Shown here: positions 29,213 to 40,947 of the stretch, piece after piece
Layout of the letters: every line of letters begins with the position of its first letter
How positions within the stretch are numbered: position 1 is the first letter of the stretch
Source: Deltaproteobacteria bacterium
GTDB taxonomy: Bacteria; Myxococcota_A; Polyangia; Polyangiales; Ga0077539
DNA: 64,000 nucleotides
Assembly (NCBI GenBank): GCA_947477565.1
Contig: CANJUR010000008.1
Span: 14,265-78,264, forward strand
Direction: 5' to 3'
Position numbers and translations under genes: made by a program
The notes under the pieces: generated by a model
Told to the model about the DNA's origin: nothing
The model's database searches: none
What the model saw: the letters and a program-made list of their open reading frames with translations, nothing else

Positions 29213-30094
29213 TCAGCGAGCGCCGGTGACCAGCGCGACTTCTCGTGCCTCGCCGGCGCGGATGATCCGCAGAGAGATCGTCGCTCGTACGCGACCGCGG
29301 AGCACGGCCACGAGGTCGCCCGGACGCTCGACGCGCTGACCATCCACCGCCAGGAGCAGATCGCCGAGCAGCAGGCCGCCAGACTCCGCGGGCCCCTGTG
29401 GTTCGAGCGCGGCGACGAGCAACCCGCGTCGCTGCCCCGCGGCCTCGACCAGAGACTCCGCGACCCGCCCAGGAACAACCTCCACGCCCAGATATCCGCG
29501 GCCCACCGTGCCGTTGGCCGCAAGCTCCGAAACCATCCGGCGAAGCGTCTCGGTCGGGATGGTTCCGCCCCCGCGACCGAGGCCCGCGGTGTTCATCCCG
29601 AGCAGCCGACCGGCCGTGTCCGCGAGCGCCCCTCCCGAAAACCCGCGCGGGAGCGAGCCATCGACCTCGATGTATCGATCGATGGTTCCGCCCGCCATGG
29701 TGCGGTAGGCCTCACCGACCGCCGAGACCATCCCCAGCGTCGCCCGCGCGCTGCGCCCCGGTCGCCCCAGGGTCAGCACCAGATGGCCCACCTTCACCGC
29801 CCCGGTGTCCGTCCATTCGGACGCCACGAGGTCGGTCGCTTCGACCTTGAGCACCGCGAGATCGGTGCCACGGTCGTGCCCGAGCACCTTCGCCTCCAGC
29901 GTCCGGCCGTCACCGAACGCCACCGTCACGCTCTCCCTCCCATCCAGGGCGTGCGCCGCCGTGACCAGCAGCCCGTCCCCCCCGAAGACCACCGCGCTCG
30001 CGGCGGAGCAGCGGCCCTCGATGCGCGCCACCCCAGCGCCGCCGCGCGCCACCGCCTCAGCCATCGACTCGGACACCTGTTCAAGAACACTCAT
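29213..30094 (-). CDS. S1C (HtrA/DegP-like) serine protease with PDZ-like domain, no obvious signal peptide
   Basis: The catalytic triad context is TAAHAL, DLAVLKV and GFSGGAL. The C-terminal part GLLVAALEPQGPAESGGLLLGDLLLAVDGQRV is PDZ-like. Confidence 0.8.
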   Translation of the reverse strand: MSVLEQVSESMAEAVARGGAGVARIEGRCSAASAVVFGGDGLLVTAAHALDGRESVTVAFGDGRTLEAKVLGHDRGTDLAVLKVEATDLVASEWTDTGAVKVGHLVLTLGRPGRSARATLGMVSAVGEAYRTMAGGTIDRYIEVDGSLPRGFSGGALADTAGRLLGMNTAGLGRGGGTIPTETLRRMVSELAANGTVGRGYLGVEVVPGRVAESLVEAAGQRRGLLVAALEPQGPAESGGLLLGDLLLAVDGQRVERPGDLVAVLRGRVRATISLRIIRAGEAREVALVTGAR

Positions 30095-34110: not shown

Positions 34111-34278
34111 GAGCCATGGTCGTCGGCGCAATGGGCGATGCGGGCCCTGGTCATCAACCCGGCCACGAAGATGAGGACAACCATCCGCCCTCCTGGGAGA
34201 GGCGCTGCGCGGTAGCGCGTCCTGACACGCGCTTGTTGTTCGCGTCTCCGATGCCGCACCCGTAGAGTCCCCCCCGCG

Positions 34279-35679
34279 TTGTCCAGCTTACTGGTGTCCC
34301 GCAAGACCTTCGGCCTCGCGCTCCTCGATGGCATCGTCGTGCTCAGCGCGCTGGCCGCCTCGGCGACGCTCGCCCGCATCGGATCAGGCTTCTCGCTGCT
34401 CACGATTCTCGTGCGCGAGTGGAAGGGCGCGACGCTCATCGCGCTGTCGGTGCACCTCCTCGCGTTCTATGTGTTCGAGCTCTACAACCTGCGGCTCAAC
34501 TTCCGGCGGCTGCGCAACCTGCTCCGCTGCGTGGGTGCGGTCGCCATCGCCGCCATCGCGCTGGCCGTCTCGAGCTTCGTCGTTCCGCGCTGGGGATTCG
34601 GCCGCACCCTTTTCAGCCTGCACGCCATCTTCCTCGCGATCGGCACGTGCGTCTCCCGCGTCGCCCTCTCGCGCTTCATCGAACTCCGCGAGCCTCCCGA
34701 TCGCGCACTGATCGTGACCGGCGCGCCCGTCCCCGAGGAGGTTCTGGAGGAGCTTGCGCGCAATCCCGAGAGCCCTTTCTCCGTGGTCGGAATGATCTCC
34801 GTCGGGCGACCGTCGATGATCTTCGACCCGCTGCACGCACCCACCCCGGCGCCCATCTCGCCGATGGCCGAGTGCGCAGCCGCGCTCCGCCGGGCGAACT
34901 CGCGCGACCTGCTGGTCGCCAACCTCGACCAGCTTCCCACCAGAGCCGCGCAAGAACTCCTCCGCCTCAAGGGCGAAGGCATCCGCGTGCGCGATCTCGC
35001 TTCGATCTACCAGGGCCTCTCCGGGCGCATGCCCCTGAAGCTCGTGGACGACCTCTACTTCCTGCGCGTCGCGGCCTTCTCACGAGACACCGACCCGGTG
35101 CTGAGCAACCTGCTCCGGGTGTTCGATGTCCTCGTGGCGCTGTTGCTCCTCGCGCTCTCCTGGCCGCTGTGGATCCTGGCCTACCTCGGCATCAAGCTGA
35201 CCATGCCCGGCCCCGCGCTCTTCTCGCAGGAGCGCGTCGGCAAGGACGAGATCCCGTACACGATCTACAAGTTTCGCTCGATGCGCCTCGACGCCGAGAA
35301 AGACGGCCCGAAGTGGGCCACGCAAAACGACGATCGCGTCACGCCGTTCGGTCGCTTCTTGCGCCGCACCCGCATCGACGAACTCCCGCAACTCTGGAAC
35401 GTCCTGCGCGGCGACATGTCCCTCGTCGGCCCTCGCCCAGAGCGCGCGGTGTTTGTCTCTCAACTCATCCGCGAGGTGCCCTACTACGCGCTGCGCTTCC
35501 AGGTCCGACCGGGTCTCACGGGATGGGCGCAGGTCAACTACCGCTACGGCGCCTCCGTGGACGACACGCGAGTGAAGCTCTCCTACGACCTCTTCTACAT
35601 CCAGGGCCGCTCGTTCTCGCTCTTCGCCGTGACGCTTCTCAAGACGGTGCAAACGGTGCTCTTCAAGCCCGGGTCGTAG
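34279..35679 (+). CDS. polyprenyl-phosphate glycosyl-1-phosphate transferase (WbaP/EpsZ-type initiating sugar transferase)
   Basis: The N-terminus is multi-TM. The C-terminal bacterial sugar-transferase domain shows [26 protein letters not shown] and [21 protein letters not shown]. The start is TTG at 34279. Confidence 0.88.
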
Positions 35680-35710
35680 TCCCTTCCGGGTGCTAGGATC
35701 CGCGCGCCCA

Positions 35711-36775
35711 ATGTCTACGCGCCCACTCCCTATCTTGATGGTTGCCCTGGCTGGTTGCCTTGCGCTCGATGGGTGCTCGACCCCGGCCTTCACGCTTCGC
35801 ATCGACGCCGGCGAGAGCGTCGACGTCGGCATCGTGAGGCCCGCCGACGTCGCACCCACGCCAACCAACGACGTCCCTGTGACTCCCATCGACGCGATCA
35901 CCACTGCCGCCGACGTCTCCGTGCCCCCGGTCGATCGCCCCGCGACGACGATCGATGTCGGCGCACCCATGGACGTCGGAACAACCACTCCAGGGACGGT
36001 TCCGGCTTCCATCGCGCGGGCGCTTCCGGCCTTTGACGCGGCGACCCTCGCGCGCGTCCGGGCCATCCGCGCCGACGGCCTGCGCCGGGGCAATCGCCCC
36101 AACGTGTTCACCAAGATCGGCGACTCCATCACCGAAGCCGGCGGATTTCTCCAGGACATCGGCGACGGCTACTTCGACCTCGCCGGGTACGACTGGCTGA
36201 TGCCCACGCTCACGTACTTCAACAGCGTCCACTTCGCCGACGGCCGCTCCAGCTTCAACCGGTACAGCCTCAGCGCGATGGGTGGGTGGGTCTCCAGCCA
36301 GCCTCTCGATGGCGACCCCAACAGCCCGCTGCGCAACGAACTCGCCGCGACCCGCCCCCTCTACGGCATCGTGATGATCGGCACCAACGACCTCGATCGC
36401 AGCACCCTCGCGGTGTACACGGCCAACCTCACCCGCATCGTCACGATCATGGAGGGCAACGGCACCGTGCCCATCGTTTCGACGATTCCCGACCGCAACG
36501 ATCAGGCGACGCCGGCCGCGCGCGTGCCCTCCTTCAACGACGCCATCCGAGCGCTCGCCCGCACGCGCAACCTCCCTCTCATCGACTACTGGCTCACGAT
36601 GCACGACCTCCCCGCGCACGGCGTCAGCGACGACGGAATCCACCCGTCGATCTGGCGCAACATGGGCGACCCCCAGGCCACCGACTTCCGCGACGTCGCG
36701 ATGCAGTACGGCTACAACATGCGCAACCTCACGGCGCTGCTCATGTTCGATCGCCTGCGCTCGCTCCCGCAGTGA
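35711..36775 (+). CDS. SGNH/GDSL-family hydrolase lipoprotein
   Basis: Lipobox LALDGC, a block I motif KIGDSITE, and IMIGTNDL. The start is ATG 35711; GTG 35690 is an alternative. Confidence 0.8.
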   Translation: MSTRPLPILMVALAGCLALDGCSTPAFTLRIDAGESVDVGIVRPADVAPTPTNDVPVTPIDAITTAADVSVPPVDRPATTIDVGAPMDVGTTTPGTVPASIARALPAFDAATLARVRAIRADGLRRGNRPNVFTKIGDSITEAGGFLQDIGDGYFDLAGYDWLMPTLTYFNSVHFADGRSSFNRYSLSAMGGWVSSQPLDGDPNSPLRNELAATRPLYGIVMIGTNDLDRSTLAVYTANLTRIVTIMEGNGTVPIVSTIPDRNDQATPAARVPSFNDAIRALARTRNLPLIDYWLTMHDLPAHGVSDDGIHPSIWRNMGDPQATDFRDVAMQYGYNMRNLTALLMFDRLRSLPQ

Positions 36776-37560
36776 CGGCCCGCCGATTCCTCCTCGCCCT
36801 CGCCCTCACGGGCTGTACGCGCCGCATCCCTCCCCCGCAGGTTCGCGTGGTGGAGTCGGTCGCGCCCGCACGCCCGATGGTGGCCTGGTCCACCGTCGCG
36901 CCGGGCTTCACATGGACGCAGGTCGAGCTGCCGTTCGACGAAGAACGGCTTCTCTGGACGGTGCTGCGCTTCGACCTTTCGCGGTGGTCTTTGCAAGTCG
37001 AGCGCTCACCCGATGACACGGTCACCGGACTCGCGCGCACCGCGGCCGTCAACGCCGGCTACTTCGAGCCCGACCACGCACCGAGCGGGTTGCTCATCTC
37101 CCGGGGACACGTCCTCGGTCGCCCCGCGACGCGCGGCGGCAGCGGCGTGCTCACCCTCCGGAACGGCCGCGCGAGCATCGAAGCCTCCGCTGGGTTTCCC
37201 GAAGACTTCGCGGGCGAACTCGCCGTGCAGTGCGGCCCGCGCCTCGTCGAGGAGGGCGGCCTCGTCGGCGTTCACCGCGACGACGGACACCGCTTCGCAC
37301 GCACCGCAGCGTGCGTCCGCGACGCAGGGCGCACCCTCGACCTCGTCCTCACCTGGAACCTCCACGACCCCCTGCGCGGACCCGGTCTCCAGTGGTTCGC
37401 GCGCCGCCTCGCAGGCCCGTCGCCCACCGGCGACCCTAGCGGATGCGAGCGCGCCCTCAACCTCGACGGCGGACCCTCCACAGGCTTCTCCATCGCAGGA
37501 GCGCCAGGCCACCCCGCGCTCGGTCCCACTCCGTGGCTGCTGACCGCGCACGCGCTGTGA
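36772..37560 (+). CDS. phosphodiester glycosidase family (NAGPA/DUF2233-like) lipoprotein
   Basis: The GTG start makes a GTGA overlap with the SGNH gene stop. Lipobox LALALTGC. Motifs AVNAGYF and ALNLDGGPST are typical of the family. Only the last 262 codons of the 424-aa track ORF are used. Confidence 0.78.
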   Translation: MTARRFLLALALTGCTRRIPPPQVRVVESVAPARPMVAWSTVAPGFTWTQVELPFDEERLLWTVLRFDLSRWSLQVERSPDDTVTGLARTAAVNAGYFEPDHAPSGLLISRGHVLGRPATRGGSGVLTLRNGRASIEASAGFPEDFAGELAVQCGPRLVEEGGLVGVHRDDGHRFARTAACVRDAGRTLDLVLTWNLHDPLRGPGLQWFARRLAGPSPTGDPSGCERALNLDGGPSTGFSIAGAPGHPALGPTPWLLTAHAL

Positions 37561-37595: not shown

Positions 37596-39206
37596 ATGAT
37601 CCGGTTTTTTACCCGTGCCGTAATCCTACTGGGGCTCGTCGGCGCGCTGGCGTGCTCGCGAGGGGAGATCCCGGCGATTCCCGACTCGGGTGTTGAAGAC
37701 GACGCTGCGACCTTCGACCTCGGCATCGACCCGCGCTGCGGATCATCCCGTTCGCCCTGCTGCGGCGGCCGCGCATGCAACCGCACCCTGGCCTGCGAGG
37801 AGGGCCTGTGCTGCGGTCTCGCAGGCGCCGACTGCGCCAGCCAACTCGATTGCTGTGGGCTCTACGGCTGCAACGAAGGGAGGTGCTGCGTTGACGTCGG
37901 CGGCCTCTGCGAATCCTCCGCGGATTGTTGCTCCGGTGGCCTCTGCCGCGACGGCCTGTGCGAGCGCGGCAACGAGTGCGGGGTGATCGGTCAGCGGTGC
38001 TGCGCGGGCGACCTCTGCGCGAGCGGCGGCGCGTGCGCGAGCGGGATGTGCGTCGCCTGCGGTCATGCCGACGCGCCGTGCTGCGACGGGCGCTGCGAGG
38101 CTGGACTGCAGTGCACCGGCGGCAGCTGCCGGGTTCCGCTGGCGTGCGGCGCGCTCGGGCAGGCGTGCTGCAACGGTCGAGCGTGCGAGCGCGGCAGCGA
38201 GTGCACCGCGGGCGTGTGTCGGCAGCCCGCCCGCTGCGGCGCGATGGGCGAGGTCTGTTGCCCCGGGAGCGCCTGCACCACCCCCCTCGTCTGCGCCGCC
38301 GGAACCTGCTCCACCCCCGCCCCGACCTGCGGCTCCCTCGGACAAACCTGCTGCTCCGGACAGGCCTGCAGCGCCCCGCTCAACTGCAGCAGCGGCGCAT
38401 GCGCGGCCTGCAACGCTCCCGGCACGCCGTGCACCCTCGCCTCGCAGTGCTGCTCGGGCTTCGACTGCCGCCCCACGCCCGTGAGCAGCCGGTGCTGCCA
38501 TCGGCAGGGTGCCACCTGCGCCAACTCGCTGGAGTGCTGCGGTCAGATGCTCTGCGACGACTCCGGCCACTGCGCCTGCCAGGCGCTGGGGCTCGCGTGC
38601 GTCGATGACAACGACTGCTGCACTGGCTCCCGCTGCACCGGCGGGGTGTGCCAGACCACGGCCGCCTGCCGCCCCGCGGGCAGCACCGGATGCACCACCG
38701 GGGAGGAGTGCTGCCAGGGGCTCCTTTGCGCGCAGGGCGCCACCGGCCGGGCTTGCTGCGCCGGCGCCACCGCGACGTGCACGCCCACGGACGGCGGAGT
38801 CGGCACCGGATGCTGCGGATCCATGGCCTGCAACCGCATCGGAACGGCAGGCTACTGCGCTTGCCGCATCCTCGACGAAAGCTGCGGCTCGAGCACCGAC
38901 TGCTGCCCTGGCTTCACGTGCTCGGGCAACCGGTGCCGACCGCCCAGCACCACCTGCCTCGGCACCGCCAACACCACCGTGTGCGCCTCCGCGGCGCAGT
39001 GCTGCAGCACCCTGACGTGCGCCATCCTGCGCGGCGCACAGCGTTGCTGCACCGGGGCGCGCGGCGGCTGCCGGACCAGCACCGAGTGCTGCGGCGCCAT
39101 GCTGTGCGCCGCCGGGCGCTGCGCCTGCCGCGAGGCCGCGAGCAGCTGTAGCCAGGACGGCGACTGCTGCACCGGCCACTGCACCGCCGGGCGCTGCGGA
39201 CCGTAA
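37596..39206 (+). CDS. hyper-cysteine-rich lipoprotein composed of about 17 tandem cystine-knot-like modules
   Basis: ATG 37596 gives MIRFFTRAVILLGLVGALAC, a lipobox. I hand-count about 103 Cys in 536 aa. The recurring spacing is C-x5-6-CC-x3-4-C-x4-8-C, with some six-Cys units C-x6-8-C-x5-CC-x4-C-x8-C. A central block holds five near-regular 27-31-aa units (CGVIGQRCC..., CGHADAPCC..., CGALGQACC..., CGAMGEVCC..., CGSLGQTCC...). Confidence 0.8.
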   Translation: MIRFFTRAVILLGLVGALACSRGEIPAIPDSGVEDDAATFDLGIDPRCGSSRSPCCGGRACNRTLACEEGLCCGLAGADCASQLDCCGLYGCNEGRCCVDVGGLCESSADCCSGGLCRDGLCERGNECGVIGQRCCAGDLCASGGACASGMCVACGHADAPCCDGRCEAGLQCTGGSCRVPLACGALGQACCNGRACERGSECTAGVCRQPARCGAMGEVCCPGSACTTPLVCAAGTCSTPAPTCGSLGQTCCSGQACSAPLNCSSGACAACNAPGTPCTLASQCCSGFDCRPTPVSSRCCHRQGATCANSLECCGQMLCDDSGHCACQALGLACVDDNDCCTGSRCTGGVCQTTAACRPAGSTGCTTGEECCQGLLCAQGATGRACCAGATATCTPTDGGVGTGCCGSMACNRIGTAGYCACRILDESCGSSTDCCPGFTCSGNRCRPPSTTCLGTANTTVCASAAQCCSTLTCAILRGAQRCCTGARGGCRTSTECCGAMLCAAGRCACREAASSCSQDGDCCTGHCTAGRCGP

Positions 39207-39210
39207 ACCG

Positions 39211-40947
39211 TCAGCGCGGAAACTGCCTCATGGCGATACCGGCGCCGACGCCCGCCTCCCACGCCACGACGAAGCGATCGCCCATGGGCCCACCGAAGGC
39301 CGCCGCGGGCGCACGCTGTGCGGGTGTCGCATCGCTCACGAGGAAGTCCGCGGTGGTGCCGCCGAGCCGCGCAAACCCGTCGCGGTCGTCGGCGCGACGA
39401 ACCCGCCCACGAATGGCCCCGGTGGCTTCGTCTTCCCACACCAGAAGCAGGGTTGAAGGCGTTCCGGGTGCAATCGCCACTGCGGGGTGTGACTGCCCAC
39501 CGGCCGTCGTCGTGTTGATCACCGCGGCAACGCCCATCACGGTCAGCGCGGCATCCAGTCGCACCCAACGGATGGACGTCGCCTCCATGTCTGCCGCATC
39601 GCGCGTCGCGTCGCGCCACGCCACCACCATGCCGCCCTCCGGAAGCGCCGCGGCGGTGGGCTGATCTTGCGTCTCCGTGGCGCTCGGATTGACCCGCACC
39701 GCCGCCGCCATGGGCATCCCCATCGCCGTAAGGCGGCGCGCGAAGATGTCTCCGTCGGCCGACCACACCAGCGCGAACGTGCCGTCGCTCAGGGCCACCG
39801 CGCGGGGATCGCTGATCGCTCCGTCAGCCACCGCCACGGGCGTCGTTGCAGGGCCGACGAGCGGTCGCGCGAGCGGCGCAAACGTCGAGGCTCGCAGTCC
39901 CACCATGGGCTCGCTCCAGGCGAGCAGGAGTCGATCGGCGCTCGCCGCGAGGGTGGGCGTCAGGCGTCGCCCGCCGGACATCGGCAGCACCCCGCTGCCC
40001 CCCGGCGGATCGTCATTGAACATCTGCGCCGCCACGTTGCCCGGCGTCTCCTGCAGGGTCTCCCAGGCACCGGCGAAGCCCTGGAGCGTCGCAGTCGTCG
40101 CGAGGGTCAGCACCGGGGCGGTCTGCGAGCTTGCGCCGCTGCCCAGCACCACGTCGTTGCGCAGCGCACCGAAGGTCGTCTCCGGGCTGCCGTCGGCGGA
40201 GAAGTACCGCGCCTTCACTTCTTCGCTCGGAACGTTCTCCACGTGCCACGCCACCACGAGGCGATGGCCCATCGGCCAGACCACCGCAGGGTGCCGCTGG
40301 AGCCCTGCGGCGTCGGTGTTCACGCGCACTACCGGGGTCTGGCACCGCGTCGAGCAGGCGCCGCCATCCATGTTGGCCGCACCGAGGTCACACACCTCGT
40401 CGAAGTCGAGCGTGCCGTCGCCGCAGCGGCCCACCGGGCGCTGCTCACGAACCACCACCGTCGCGCTCTGCTGCTGCCCTGCTGCCACGGTCACCTCCGC
40501 GCAGCCGGAGCCGAGAATCTCGCTGCGGGTGGTTCCGTCGGGCAGGGGCAGGTTGCCCTGGCCATGGACGAGGGCGATGTAGGTGCCGGGGGAGTTGATG
40601 GCGACGGTGGTCGGCTCCGCCGCGCTGAAGCAGGTGTCCACGGGGGAGGCCGTACCGAAGCGCCCGGACTCCGTCGCCCAGCCGATGCCGCAGCGCACCG
40701 CGGGGGTGACGTCGCGGCCGGGTAGGGCAGCGAGCACCCGCAGCCCCGCCGCGTCGCGAACCTGCCCCGAGGAGGCATCGCAGCGCAGCGCGCCCTTCGG
40801 GAATACCCGAAGGTGTAACGGACCGATGAGGTCGGAGAGCATCAACTGGTCGAGGGAGACCTGCAGCGGCGGCGGCATGGGCTCGCCTCCGCACGCCGAG
40901 AGCACCACCATCACCGCCAGGGACCATCGCGAGGATTGCTTCTGCAT
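39211..40947 (-). CDS. lipoprotein with a myxococcal cysteine-rich repeat and about seven W-centred beta-propeller-like repeats
   Basis: Lipobox VVLSAC. CGDGTLDFDEVCDLGAANMDGGACSTRCQ resembles the CGDG...E.CD.G..N...C...C repeat. About seven segments have the pattern (H/Q)P(A/T)xA...hhh(A/V)W...(A/I)RR(F/L). Its stop lies 4 bp from the stop of the convergent Cys-rich gene. Confidence 0.7.
   Translation of the reverse strand: MQKQSSRWSLAVMVVLSACGGEPMPPPLQVSLDQLMLSDLIGPLHLRVFPKGALRCDASSGQVRDAAGLRVLAALPGRDVTPAVRCGIGWATESGRFGTASPVDTCFSAAEPTTVAINSPGTYIALVHGQGNLPLPDGTTRSEILGSGCAEVTVAAGQQQSATVVVREQRPVGRCGDGTLDFDEVCDLGAANMDGGACSTRCQTPVVRVNTDAAGLQRHPAVVWPMGHRLVVAWHVENVPSEEVKARYFSADGSPETTFGALRNDVVLGSGASSQTAPVLTLATTATLQGFAGAWETLQETPGNVAAQMFNDDPPGGSGVLPMSGGRRLTPTLAASADRLLLAWSEPMVGLRASTFAPLARPLVGPATTPVAVADGAISDPRAVALSDGTFALVWSADGDIFARRLTAMGMPMAAAVRVNPSATETQDQPTAAALPEGGMVVAWRDATRDAADMEATSIRWVRLDAALTVMGVAAVINTTTAGGQSHPAVAIAPGTPSTLLLVWEDEATGAIRGRVRRADDRDGFARLGGTTADFLVSDATPAQRAPAAAFGGPMGDRFVVAWEAGVGAGIAMRQFPR

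Follow-up and report, generated by a model that had tools for sequence, protein, structure and literature searches.

To our knowledge, knottins are known almost entirely as single 30-residue eukaryotic peptides, with at most two joined, and they are prized as ultra-stable scaffolds for drugs and imaging. Among them, the inhibitor cystine knot (ICK) toxins of spiders, cone snails, sea anemones, and remipedes are free peptides of 30-40 residues, and the disulfide-directed beta-hairpin (DDH), a two-disulfide core, has been proposed as the ICK ancestor. In this study, we analyzed a 64,000-nucleotide stretch of a Deltaproteobacteria bacterium (GenBank assembly GCA_947477565.1, contig CANJUR010000008.1, positions 14,265 to 78,264; hereafter the window), in which a gene at 37596-39206 on the plus strand encodes, without an internal stop, a 536-residue protein with 103 cysteines (19.2%). 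A predicted lipoprotein signal and a tether are followed by 17 six-cysteine modules, 11 of which (type B) carry the ICK framework, whereas six (type A) do not. The anatomy of this protein and the ICK/DDH assignment of its modules are better supported than its function.

The six-cysteine framework of the type B modules is the same as that of the ICK toxins (PF07740, Conotoxin_I2, Toxin_7, and Toxin_21; structures 6nk9, 6gft, and 1la4). The two also share the non-cysteine consensus G5, D/E13 before the CC doublet, G17, and L18 and, in our models, a C-terminal hairpin with a short helical turn before the doublet. However, the protein described here is bacterial and predicted to be lipid-anchored, its 17 modules are fused by linkers of 0-6 residues, its loops are rich in small residues with neither Lys nor Trp, and its scores fall under every Pfam cut-off. 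As far as the sequences tell, this likeness may reflect either homology or convergence.

Tandem ICKs in one secreted chain, as predicted here, are known from the double-knot toxins and SCREPs (DkTx, 6cuc; Hi1a, 2n8f; Xt3a, 7rz3). The protein has the signal peptide and the tandem disulfide-rich repeats that define SCREPs, which are a descriptive class and not a homology family. ICK folds are rare among SCREPs (PMC6262176), and the tandem-ICK examples of that paper and of our own searches (CpTx-1, DkTx, Hi1a, and Xt3a) have two domains, compared with 17 modules in the present protein.

More distant likenesses were also considered. Dickkopf_N (PF04706; Dkk4, 5o57) has an ending similar to that of a module (...C-x5-DCC-x-G-x2-C-x2-G-x-C), but it is a single 10-cysteine animal signalling domain and not a six-cysteine repeat. 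Granulin (PF00396) is a 12-cysteine module whose four CC pairs build a ladder of stacked hairpins, whereas each module here has six cysteines and one CC. Relatives with DUF7107 (PF23416) or the EB module (PF01683) consist mostly of four-cysteine units joined to other surface domains, unlike the protein of the window. TIGR02232 (myxo_disulf_rpt), a disulfide-rich repeat of secreted myxobacterial proteins, differs in cysteine pattern and length and had no match in the protein. According to the KNOTTIN database (PMC5753296), "bacterial knottins" are predicted sequences without experimental structure, and knottins are absent from archaea. The literature on bacterial and myxobacterial knottins and on DUF7107 yielded no description of long knottin arrays in bacteria; PMC10672856 was set aside as a precedent because it deals with backbone knots, not cystine knots.

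A chain of 17 six-cysteine modules

The modules were delimited by a left-to-right regular-expression parse of the translation. The parse was exact, with 17 modules of six cysteines accounting for 102 cysteines and the lipobox cysteine for the remaining one, in agreement with the initial annotation, made from the sequence without database searches, of about 17 tandem modules with about 19% cysteine. The order of the modules was A-B-B-A-A-A-A-A-B-B-B-B-B-B-B-B-B, with the spacing C-x6-8-C-x5-10-CC-x3-4-C-x4-8-C in type B (n=11) and C-x6-CC-x3-4-C-x5-C-x4-C in type A (n=6). Across the family, both types fit a 25-residue scaffold, with the consensus CxxxGxxCxxxxDCCxGxxCxxGxC for B and CGxxGxxCCxGxxCxxGLxCxxGxC for A. 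Cysteines at positions 1, 8, 14, 20, and 25 are common to both scaffolds, and those at 8, 14, 20, and 25 form a shared four-cysteine core; the sixth cysteine lies at position 15 in B and at position 9 in A. The sequence CNAPGTPC...SSRC, which had been cited as an example of a six-cysteine unit, is module B3 (residues 272-300). In the formula proposed for five central units, CG-x3-(Q/E)-x-CC-xG-x2-C-x5-C-x3-C, the last loop should read x4 instead of x3.

The modules are 24-34 residues long and the linkers between them 0-6 residues. At five junctions (72/73, 97/98, 300/301, 387/388, and 484/485) there is no linker, and the last cysteine of one module abuts the first of the next; three junctions consist of a single Ala, and the remaining linkers have 2-6 residues. 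Each of the 17 modules indeed contains one CC doublet, as had been proposed, but the protein has 22 doublets, and the other five are these linkerless junctions rather than intra-module features. C-x-C and C-x2-C were found at module junctions only, and no conserved or dibasic processing motif was present in the inter-module linkers. The last nine modules, all of type B, fall into three super-repeats of three modules each, T1 (272-352), T2 (358-447), and T3 (454-534), which align with one another and with the triplets of homologues. Tandem Repeats Finder detected no DNA repeat inside the gene, and the best nucleotide identity between modules was 64%, indicating that the duplications are old. 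The separate orthologous column that nearly every module has in all 31 family members likewise speaks against the recent tandem duplication suggested by the initial annotation.

The frame at 37596-39206 is a real gene under purifying selection. GC content at its three codon positions was 0.59/0.73/0.88 (GC3 0.88), which fits a genome of roughly 68-70% GC and a window of 66-74% GC, and a product identical in its 536 residues and its start is called in the NCBI metagenome-assembled genome (MAG) GCA_947476635.1, contig CANJRO010000004.1. The orthologue at locus L007 begins at the equivalent Met, so the start is conserved. The two proteins were 81% identical, with 103 of 103 cysteines kept, 77% identity at non-cysteine positions, and a ratio of nonsynonymous to synonymous substitution rates (dN/dS) of 0.21. 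The orthologue at locus L008 also kept 103 of 103 cysteines at 53% overall and 44% non-cysteine identity; its dN/dS of 0.50 is uninformative, since dS was 0.82 and probably saturated. A longer in-frame open reading frame (ORF) starting at 37443 was rejected; it overlaps the upstream gene, and its extra part is Arg-rich out-of-frame text. An antisense ORF at 37743-39179 on the minus strand (478 residues, Ala/Gly/Arg-rich) spans most of the gene. It was likewise rejected, because the plus-strand frame has 31 orthologues with conserved cysteines, and the high third-codon-position GC of the coding strand explains why it is open.

The N-terminus (MIRFFTRAVILLGLVGALAC followed by SRGE) is a lipoprotein-type signal, comprising an n-region, an h-region, and a lipobox with an invariant cysteine (MIRFFTRAVILLGLVGALA followed by Cys). 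The lipobox and the 27-residue linker of the initial annotation were thus both recovered, the cysteine column being kept in 30 of 30 homologues, and its conservation suggests lipidation at Cys20. Besides its cysteines, the protein contains no Lys, no Trp, two Tyr, and five Phe. Its features are as follows.

37596..37652 (+): signal peptide, residues 1-19, MIRFFTRAVILLGLVGALA; Arg-containing n-region, hydrophobic h-region, helix at 3-16 in the AlphaFold2 model
37653..37655 (+): lipobox Cys20 (GALA-C, followed by Ser), where lipidation is predicted and the mature protein would begin
37656..37736 (+): tether of 27 residues (21-47), acidic, Pro-containing, SRGEIPAIPDSGVEDDAATFDLGIDPR; disordered after the signal helix in the full-length AlphaFold2 model, with a predicted local distance difference test (pLDDT) score <50 at residues 16-46
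37737..37811 (+): module A1, residues 48-72, type A, C-x6-CC-x4-C-x5-C-x4-C; parse, modelled beta-hairpin 65-68/71-74
37812..37886 (+): module B1, residues 73-97, ICK spacing, abuts A1 without a linker; parse, first and fourth cysteines (C1 and C4) both lost in homologue P0007
37887..37961 (+): module B2, residues 98-122, type B, abuts B1 without a linker; parse, weak Toxin_12 match of 16.2 bits, C1 and C4 lost in the same 10 homologues
37977..38051 (+): module A2, residues 128-152, type A; parse, AlphaFold2 model
38058..38129 (+): module A3, residues 155-178, type A with an x3 third loop; parse, AlphaFold2 model
38145..38219 (+): module A4, residues 184-208, type A; parse, AlphaFold2 model
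38235..38309 (+): module A5, residues 214-238, type A; parse, C1 and C3 lost in the same 21 homologues, a four-cysteine module in most Sandaracinaceae orthologues
38328..38402 (+): module A6, residues 245-269, type A; parse, AlphaFold2 model
38409..38495 (+): module B3, residues 272-300, type B with a long last loop (CRPTPVSSRC), first of T1; parse, AlphaFold2 triplet
38496..38573 (+): module B4, residues 301-326, type B, abuts B3 without a linker, carries the family motif C-A/E-NSL-D/E-CCG-x-M-x-C; parse, AlphaFold2 triplet
38577..38651 (+): module B5, residues 328-352, type B, last of T1; AlphaFold2 triplet, Foldseek, C1 and C4 lost in the same 13 homologues
38667..38756 (+): module B6, residues 358-387, type B, first of T2; parse, triplet alignment, AlphaFold2
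38757..38858 (+): module B7, residues 388-421, type B with x10 and x8 loops, abuts B6 without a linker; parse, triplet alignment, AlphaFold2
38862..38936 (+): module B8, residues 423-447, type B, last of T2; parse, weak Toxin_12 match of 17.8 bits
38955..39047 (+): module B9, residues 454-484, type B, first of T3; parse, triplet alignment, AlphaFold2
39048..39122 (+): module B10, residues 485-509, type B, abuts B9 without a linker; parse, triplet alignment, AlphaFold2
39126..39197 (+): module B11, residues 511-534, C-x6-C-x5-CC-x3-C-x4-C, omega-conotoxin-like spacing; parse, C1 and C4 both lost in 9 homologues
39204-39206 (+): stop codon, after the Gly-Pro that trails B11

Predicted fold and disulfide pairing of the modules

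The whole protein matched no family of Pfam or NCBIfam at E<=1, as the initial annotation had anticipated in recognizing no named bacterial family, and phmmer against PDB sequences returned nothing at E<=1. When a profile of 71 B modules was searched against PDB sequences, 21 matches were obtained at E<=10, every one of which was an ICK toxin; the best were Xt3a (2.6e-4), cyriotoxin-1a (1.9e-3), and AcaTx1 (2.1e-3). A control profile with the non-cysteine residues shuffled in each module gave three ICK matches with a best E of 0.045, indicating that the cysteine framework alone selects ICKs and that G5, D13, G17, and L18 add about 7 bits. With the type A profile, the best PDB match was a weak disintegrin (E=0.19), and no ICK was found. 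The C1-C3 placement of type A matched no named fold in the PDB-profile and Pfam searches.

The type B set fits the ICK framework C-x3-7-C-x3-8-C-x0-7-C-x1-4-C-x4-13-C with loops of 6-8/5-10/0/3-4/4-8, and only loop 1 of B9 (x8) and loop 2 of B7 (x10) lie just outside its ranges, whereas loop 2 of the type A modules has zero residues, which does not fit. The ICK spacing that had been proposed for some modules therefore holds for 11 of the 17, with the PDB profile and the AlphaFold2 triplet on its side, but not for the six of type A.

In a Pfam scan of 24 triplets, all matches were below threshold and of ICK type; Toxin_12 was found in 18 of the 24, Dickkopf_N in 17, and Conotoxin_I2 in nine. 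Conotoxin_I2 reached 22.7 bits (cut-off 27) and Dickkopf_N at best 17.4 bits (cut-off 25). The type A segments of the protein had no Pfam match, and DUF7107 (cut-off 24.6 bits) had none at E<=10 in the protein or its five segments. Granulin was absent both from the Pfam matches at E<=10 and from the Foldseek lists of the two AlphaFold2 models described below, so the granulin-like stacks that had been suggested found no counterpart.

AlphaFold2 predicted triplet T1, from a 24-row alignment, with a pLDDT of 92.5 and a predicted template modelling score (pTM) of 0.77, giving a confident ICK-like model for the B triplet. In the Foldseek list of this model, dozens of knottins came after the top matches, which were the Dkk4 N-terminal domain, scytovirin, and Dkk1. 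When single modules were superposed on SGTx1, hanatoxin, conotoxin GXIA, and an engineered knottin, the deviation over 22-28 residues was 0.7-1.1 Å (Foldseek E>=0.08), with target-normalised TM (TMt) values of 0.6-0.74 for knottins and about 0.7 for squash inhibitors. Each module of the triplet model has a hairpin, and in the full-length model (pLDDT 66, pTM 0.26) every module, whether A or B, contains exactly one beta-hairpin. The low pTM of the latter model indicates that the chain has no fixed global packing; the Foldseek list of the full-length model added the double-knot toxins DkTx and Hi1a. Dkk4 was the top match of both models (E 0.08 and 0.16) at a TM of about 0.3.

Cysteine losses were counted per module instance in an alignment of 31 family sequences. 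In type B, C1 and C4 were lost together in 43 module instances, whereas C1 alone was lost in one; these paired losses occurred in B1, B2, B4, B5, B6, B8, B9, and B11 in different lineages. In type A, C1 and C3 (scaffold position 9) were lost together in 23 module instances. The four core cysteines (8, 14, 20, and 25) were essentially never lost. This pattern suggests a hairpin core with two disulfides, as in the DDH, that carries a dispensable C1-C4 disulfide corresponding to the ICK I-IV bond, and the sequences of type A point to a short C1-C3 clasp in place of C1-C4, on a two-disulfide core and not a knot. The DDH core corresponds to the hairpin and these four cysteines, and orthologue modules without C1 and C4, or without C1 and C3, keep exactly this core. 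Unlike the DDH, all 17 modules of the window's protein are predicted to keep a third disulfide. Loss almost only in defined pairs also argues against free metal-binding thiols. The cysteines of II-V and III-VI are invariant across the family, and covariation gives no pairing for them; we infer these two bonds and the knot threading in the B modules.

Relatives and genomic neighbourhood

A word-indexed search with the protein yielded only 14 proteins, all unnamed or "hypothetical", one of them from a Sandaracinaceae MAG. The closest metagenomic homologue of this first search, P0001 (L003 10001-11626), was 56% identical; beyond about residue 378 it turns into Arg-rich out-of-frame text, a sign that its JGI contig contains a frameshift or was misassembled. 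When a family profile was run with exhaustive HMMER against 1.84 billion cluster representatives (clusters at 50% identity), 941 matches were obtained at E<=1e-3, 161 at E<=1e-10, and 23 at E<=1e-30, suggesting that the full-length family is small and that its modules are spread more widely. GTDB species genomes were also scanned with the B4 motif pattern, built from a six-sequence triplet alignment. All 13 loci recovered were in Myxococcota MAGs, mostly labelled Sandaracinaceae/Sandaracinus. As regards the taxonomic distribution, which the initial annotation had suggested mapping, full-length relatives were found only in Myxococcota MAGs, mostly Sandaracinaceae, and related module arrays in about 940 clusters. 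The family is collinear, nearly every module having its own orthologous column in the 31 sequences. Outside the cysteines, conservation is confined almost entirely to Gly, Asp, Leu, and Met in structural positions, and the loops drift freely.

Among the best 150 of the 941 profile matches, arrays reached about 20 B or about 15 A modules, and about half of the proteins starting with Met had lipobox-like N-termini by a loose pattern. Some distant proteins that share modules pass the DUF7107/EB models, namely P0034, with FG-GAP, P0039, with TIG, and P0046; P0034 and similar proteins consist of four-cysteine units. Arrays of 9-15 type A units with the pattern CG-x2-G-x2-CC-x-G-x2-C-x2-G-L-x-C-x2-G-x-C were observed in otherwise unrelated large proteins (P0036, P0041, P0042, P0067, P0081, P0089, and P0110), whose lower Arg/Lys bias suggests lower-GC organisms. 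No Pfam family was found in the type A arrays of P0011, P0012, and P0036 (for P0036, at a loose threshold), and in an index of 5.8 billion proteins, a profile of a type A triplet matched just three, all unnamed and weakly scoring. One further match, P0114 (886 residues), has about 20 type B modules and an N-terminus, MRAQTSVEYMITLAVVLLIAIAVIAILGFF, resembling the archaeal class III (type IV pilin-like) signal. If P0114 were archaeal, it would contradict the reported absence of knottins from archaea (PMC5753296).

The following genes flank the gene in the window.

34279-35679 (same strand): Bac_transf sugar transferase
35690-36775 (same strand): SGNH/GDSL hydrolase, lipobox MVALAGC
36772..37560 (+): NAGPA-like phosphodiester glycosidase (PF09992, E=6e-15), lipobox LALTGC, 36 bp upstream of the gene
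39211-40947 (-): 578-residue lipoprotein, lipobox VVLSAC, no Pfam family, convergent with the gene

Bac_transf, SGNH, NAGPA, and finally the present gene follow one another closely on the same strand, and a terminator-like hairpin was found only upstream of Bac_transf, at 34214-34233; from this arrangement, the four look like one transcription unit. Between 35690 and 40947, four consecutive genes (SGNH, NAGPA, the present gene with GALAC, and that of the 578-residue protein) have lipobox-type N-termini. The product of 39211-40947 contains one weak TIGR02232 copy at residues 174-203 (E=0.02).

The whole gene order is retained at L007. At L003, NAGPA and the gene are retained, and at L008 the gene and the downstream lipoprotein; the latter adjoins the gene at L007 (82% identity) and L008 (51%) and is absent from the Sandaracinaceae loci. 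Linkage to NAGPA is thus limited to the window's own clade and lost in the Sandaracinaceae loci; neighbouring genes in general are kept only within clades. At about 12 of the Sandaracinaceae loci, the orthologue lies between a divergent upstream gene for a cytoplasmic GS-rich protein and, downstream, proC with a Ser/Thr kinase gene. The GS-rich neighbour (L001/L002/L004 and L009-L019) has 485-571 residues, a very long Gly-Ser insert, and no Pfam family; it is unrelated to the 578-residue lipoprotein of the window's clade. At the locus of P0010, a distant homologue, two divergently transcribed genes for trypsin-like proteases and a GDSL gene are adjacent. At each of the Sandaracinaceae MAG loci examined (about 12), a single orthologue occupied a constant place beside proC, which would suit a core gene better than a toxin cassette. 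Judged from gene order, it behaves as a stand-alone gene, one per locus examined.

Proposed role and its alternatives

We propose that the protein is an intact, disulfide-stapled chain that a Sandaracinaceae-type myxobacterium uses in its envelope or on its surface as a tether, spacer, or shield, a proposal to which we give slightly less than an even chance. The protein would be exported by Sec, lipidated at Cys20, and then freed of its signal peptide by signal peptidase II; the residue at +2 is Ser, which is not a retention residue, so the Lol system would probably deliver it to the outer membrane. Oxidation in the periplasm would form about 51 disulfides. The mature protein would then comprise a flexible 27-residue tether and 17 mini-domains strung together like beads. 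Each mini-domain would be a beta-hairpin locked by disulfides and built on a four-cysteine core, to which type B would add the C1-C4 disulfide, completing the ICK framework, and type A the C1-C3 clasp. The product could be a long filament, tens of nanometres if extended, that withstands proteases and denaturation. In its role of tether, spacer, or shield it might also bind weakly and multivalently, and it would not be a precursor of free peptides. It is from the predicted lipid anchor, the zero-length junctions, the position-specific orthology, and the drifting loops that we infer the localisation, the intact state, and the structural role of the protein. A protease-resistant surface stalk is accordingly the most plausible of the three functions offered by the initial annotation.

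The other two of those functions fared poorly. Cleavage of a polyprotein into up to 17 free disulfide-rich toxin or antimicrobial peptides, as in eukaryotic multi-knottin precursors, would suit the ICK framework, which is typical of secreted toxins and antimicrobial peptides, and myxobacteria are predators. However, five junctions are Cys-Cys, three are a single Ala, and the others are 2-6 residues without a processing motif. In addition, nearly all module positions are individually orthologous in 31 proteins instead of being homogenised copies, the precursor is predicted to carry a lipid anchor, and no protease or transporter gene is consistently adjacent; such processing is very unlikely. 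A thiol-rich buffer, in which the 102 cysteines stay largely reduced and bind Cu/Zn/Cd or scavenge oxidants like a periplasmic metallothionein, appears still less credible, indeed highly improbable. The cysteine content of 19% and the near absence of aromatic residues give a superficial metallothionein likeness, but C-x-C/C-x2-C, the hallmark of metallothioneins, is confined to module junctions. Moreover, the paired losses (43:1 and 23) are those of disulfide partners and not of metal clusters, export is predicted to lead to an oxidising compartment, and the spacing follows the ICK framework, with confident models of one hairpin per module.

Knottins of squash and potato are classic protease inhibitors, and the protein could instead be a multi-headed enzyme inhibitor whose knottin heads block competitors' proteases, or those that the predator itself secretes, at the surface or in the periplasm. 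The squash trypsin inhibitors MCTI-A, EETI-II, and MCoTI were present in the Foldseek lists (TMt 0.67-0.73), P0010 stands beside its two trypsin-like protease genes, and the window contains an HtrA-like Trypsin_2-PDZ gene at 29216-30094. Nevertheless, those Foldseek E-values were non-significant, and of about 20 loci only one had adjacent protease genes. Squash inhibitors act through loop 1; in the present modules this loop is Gly/Ala/Ser/Thr-rich and varies between orthologues, and conservation outside the cysteines is limited to Gly, Asp, Leu, and Met, which makes an inhibitor unlikely. A polysaccharide adhesin or lectin, binding exopolysaccharide, prey, or plant glycans multivalently in conjunction with the upstream sugar transferase, SGNH esterase, and NAGPA, would accord with the co-directional, tight order of Bac_transf, SGNH, NAGPA, and the gene, with the hairpin upstream of the first gene only, and with the conservation of that order at L007 and of NAGPA and the gene at L003. 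Arrays of hevein or carbohydrate-binding modules (CBM), such as wheat-germ agglutinin, bind glycans in this multivalent manner, and scytovirin and wheat-germ agglutinin were among the weak Foldseek matches. Small disulfide-rich glycan binders normally rely on aromatic platforms, however, and the 536 residues include 0 Trp, 2 Tyr, and 5 Phe; furthermore, the synteny is lost at about 12 Sandaracinaceae loci, where proC is the neighbour instead, and searches with the type A region turned up no CBM or lectin family. Glycan binding as the main role is therefore quite improbable.

The proposed knottin-like tether is itself open to objections of several kinds, which weigh against it. Toxin_12 scored 12.7-17.8 bits on segments of the protein, under its cut-off of 21. 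Foldseek of the T1 model against the PDB gave nothing at E<=0.001 (best 0.08); weak E-values are usual for domains of 25 residues. AlphaFold2 may merely reproduce learned knottins for this cysteine spacing. The reading as a structural tether was reached in part by default, since the loops are not conserved, and no partner gene was conserved across the family among the loci examined. Finally, the gene follows the sugar-transferase/SGNH/NAGPA set in the window's clade, which may indicate a polysaccharide-related role instead.

If the B modules are true cystine knots, the protein would represent the first described bacterial knottin lipoprotein family, among the longest natural concatemers, and the tip of an unnamed prokaryotic superfamily. 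That superfamily would number about 940 clusters and use DDH/ICK mini-domains as bricks of disulfide-stapled envelope filaments. We regard this combined reading as tentative and rather less than evenly probable. Some members of the superfamily are apparently lipoproteins, and one has an archaeal-type, pilin-like signal. Types A and B are newly defined here, and neither has a Pfam or NCBIfam model. The architecture would surprise a specialist in disulfide-rich peptides, with a fold assignment that rests on prediction. The natural series of six-cysteine and four-cysteine modules in the family could provide a direct test of the proposed path from DDH to ICK, and protein engineers would gain from it a genetically encoded template with which a bacterial oxidative folding system could make disulfide-rich polymers that are multivalent or mechanically robust. 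For the biology of the family, 17 fused knottin/DDH units in a bacterial lipoprotein would show the fold as a chain element of envelope filaments, and the knottin fold, hitherto known almost exclusively in toxins and inhibitors of eukaryotes, would be seen to serve prokaryotes as a structural, polymer-like element and might even have originated in them.

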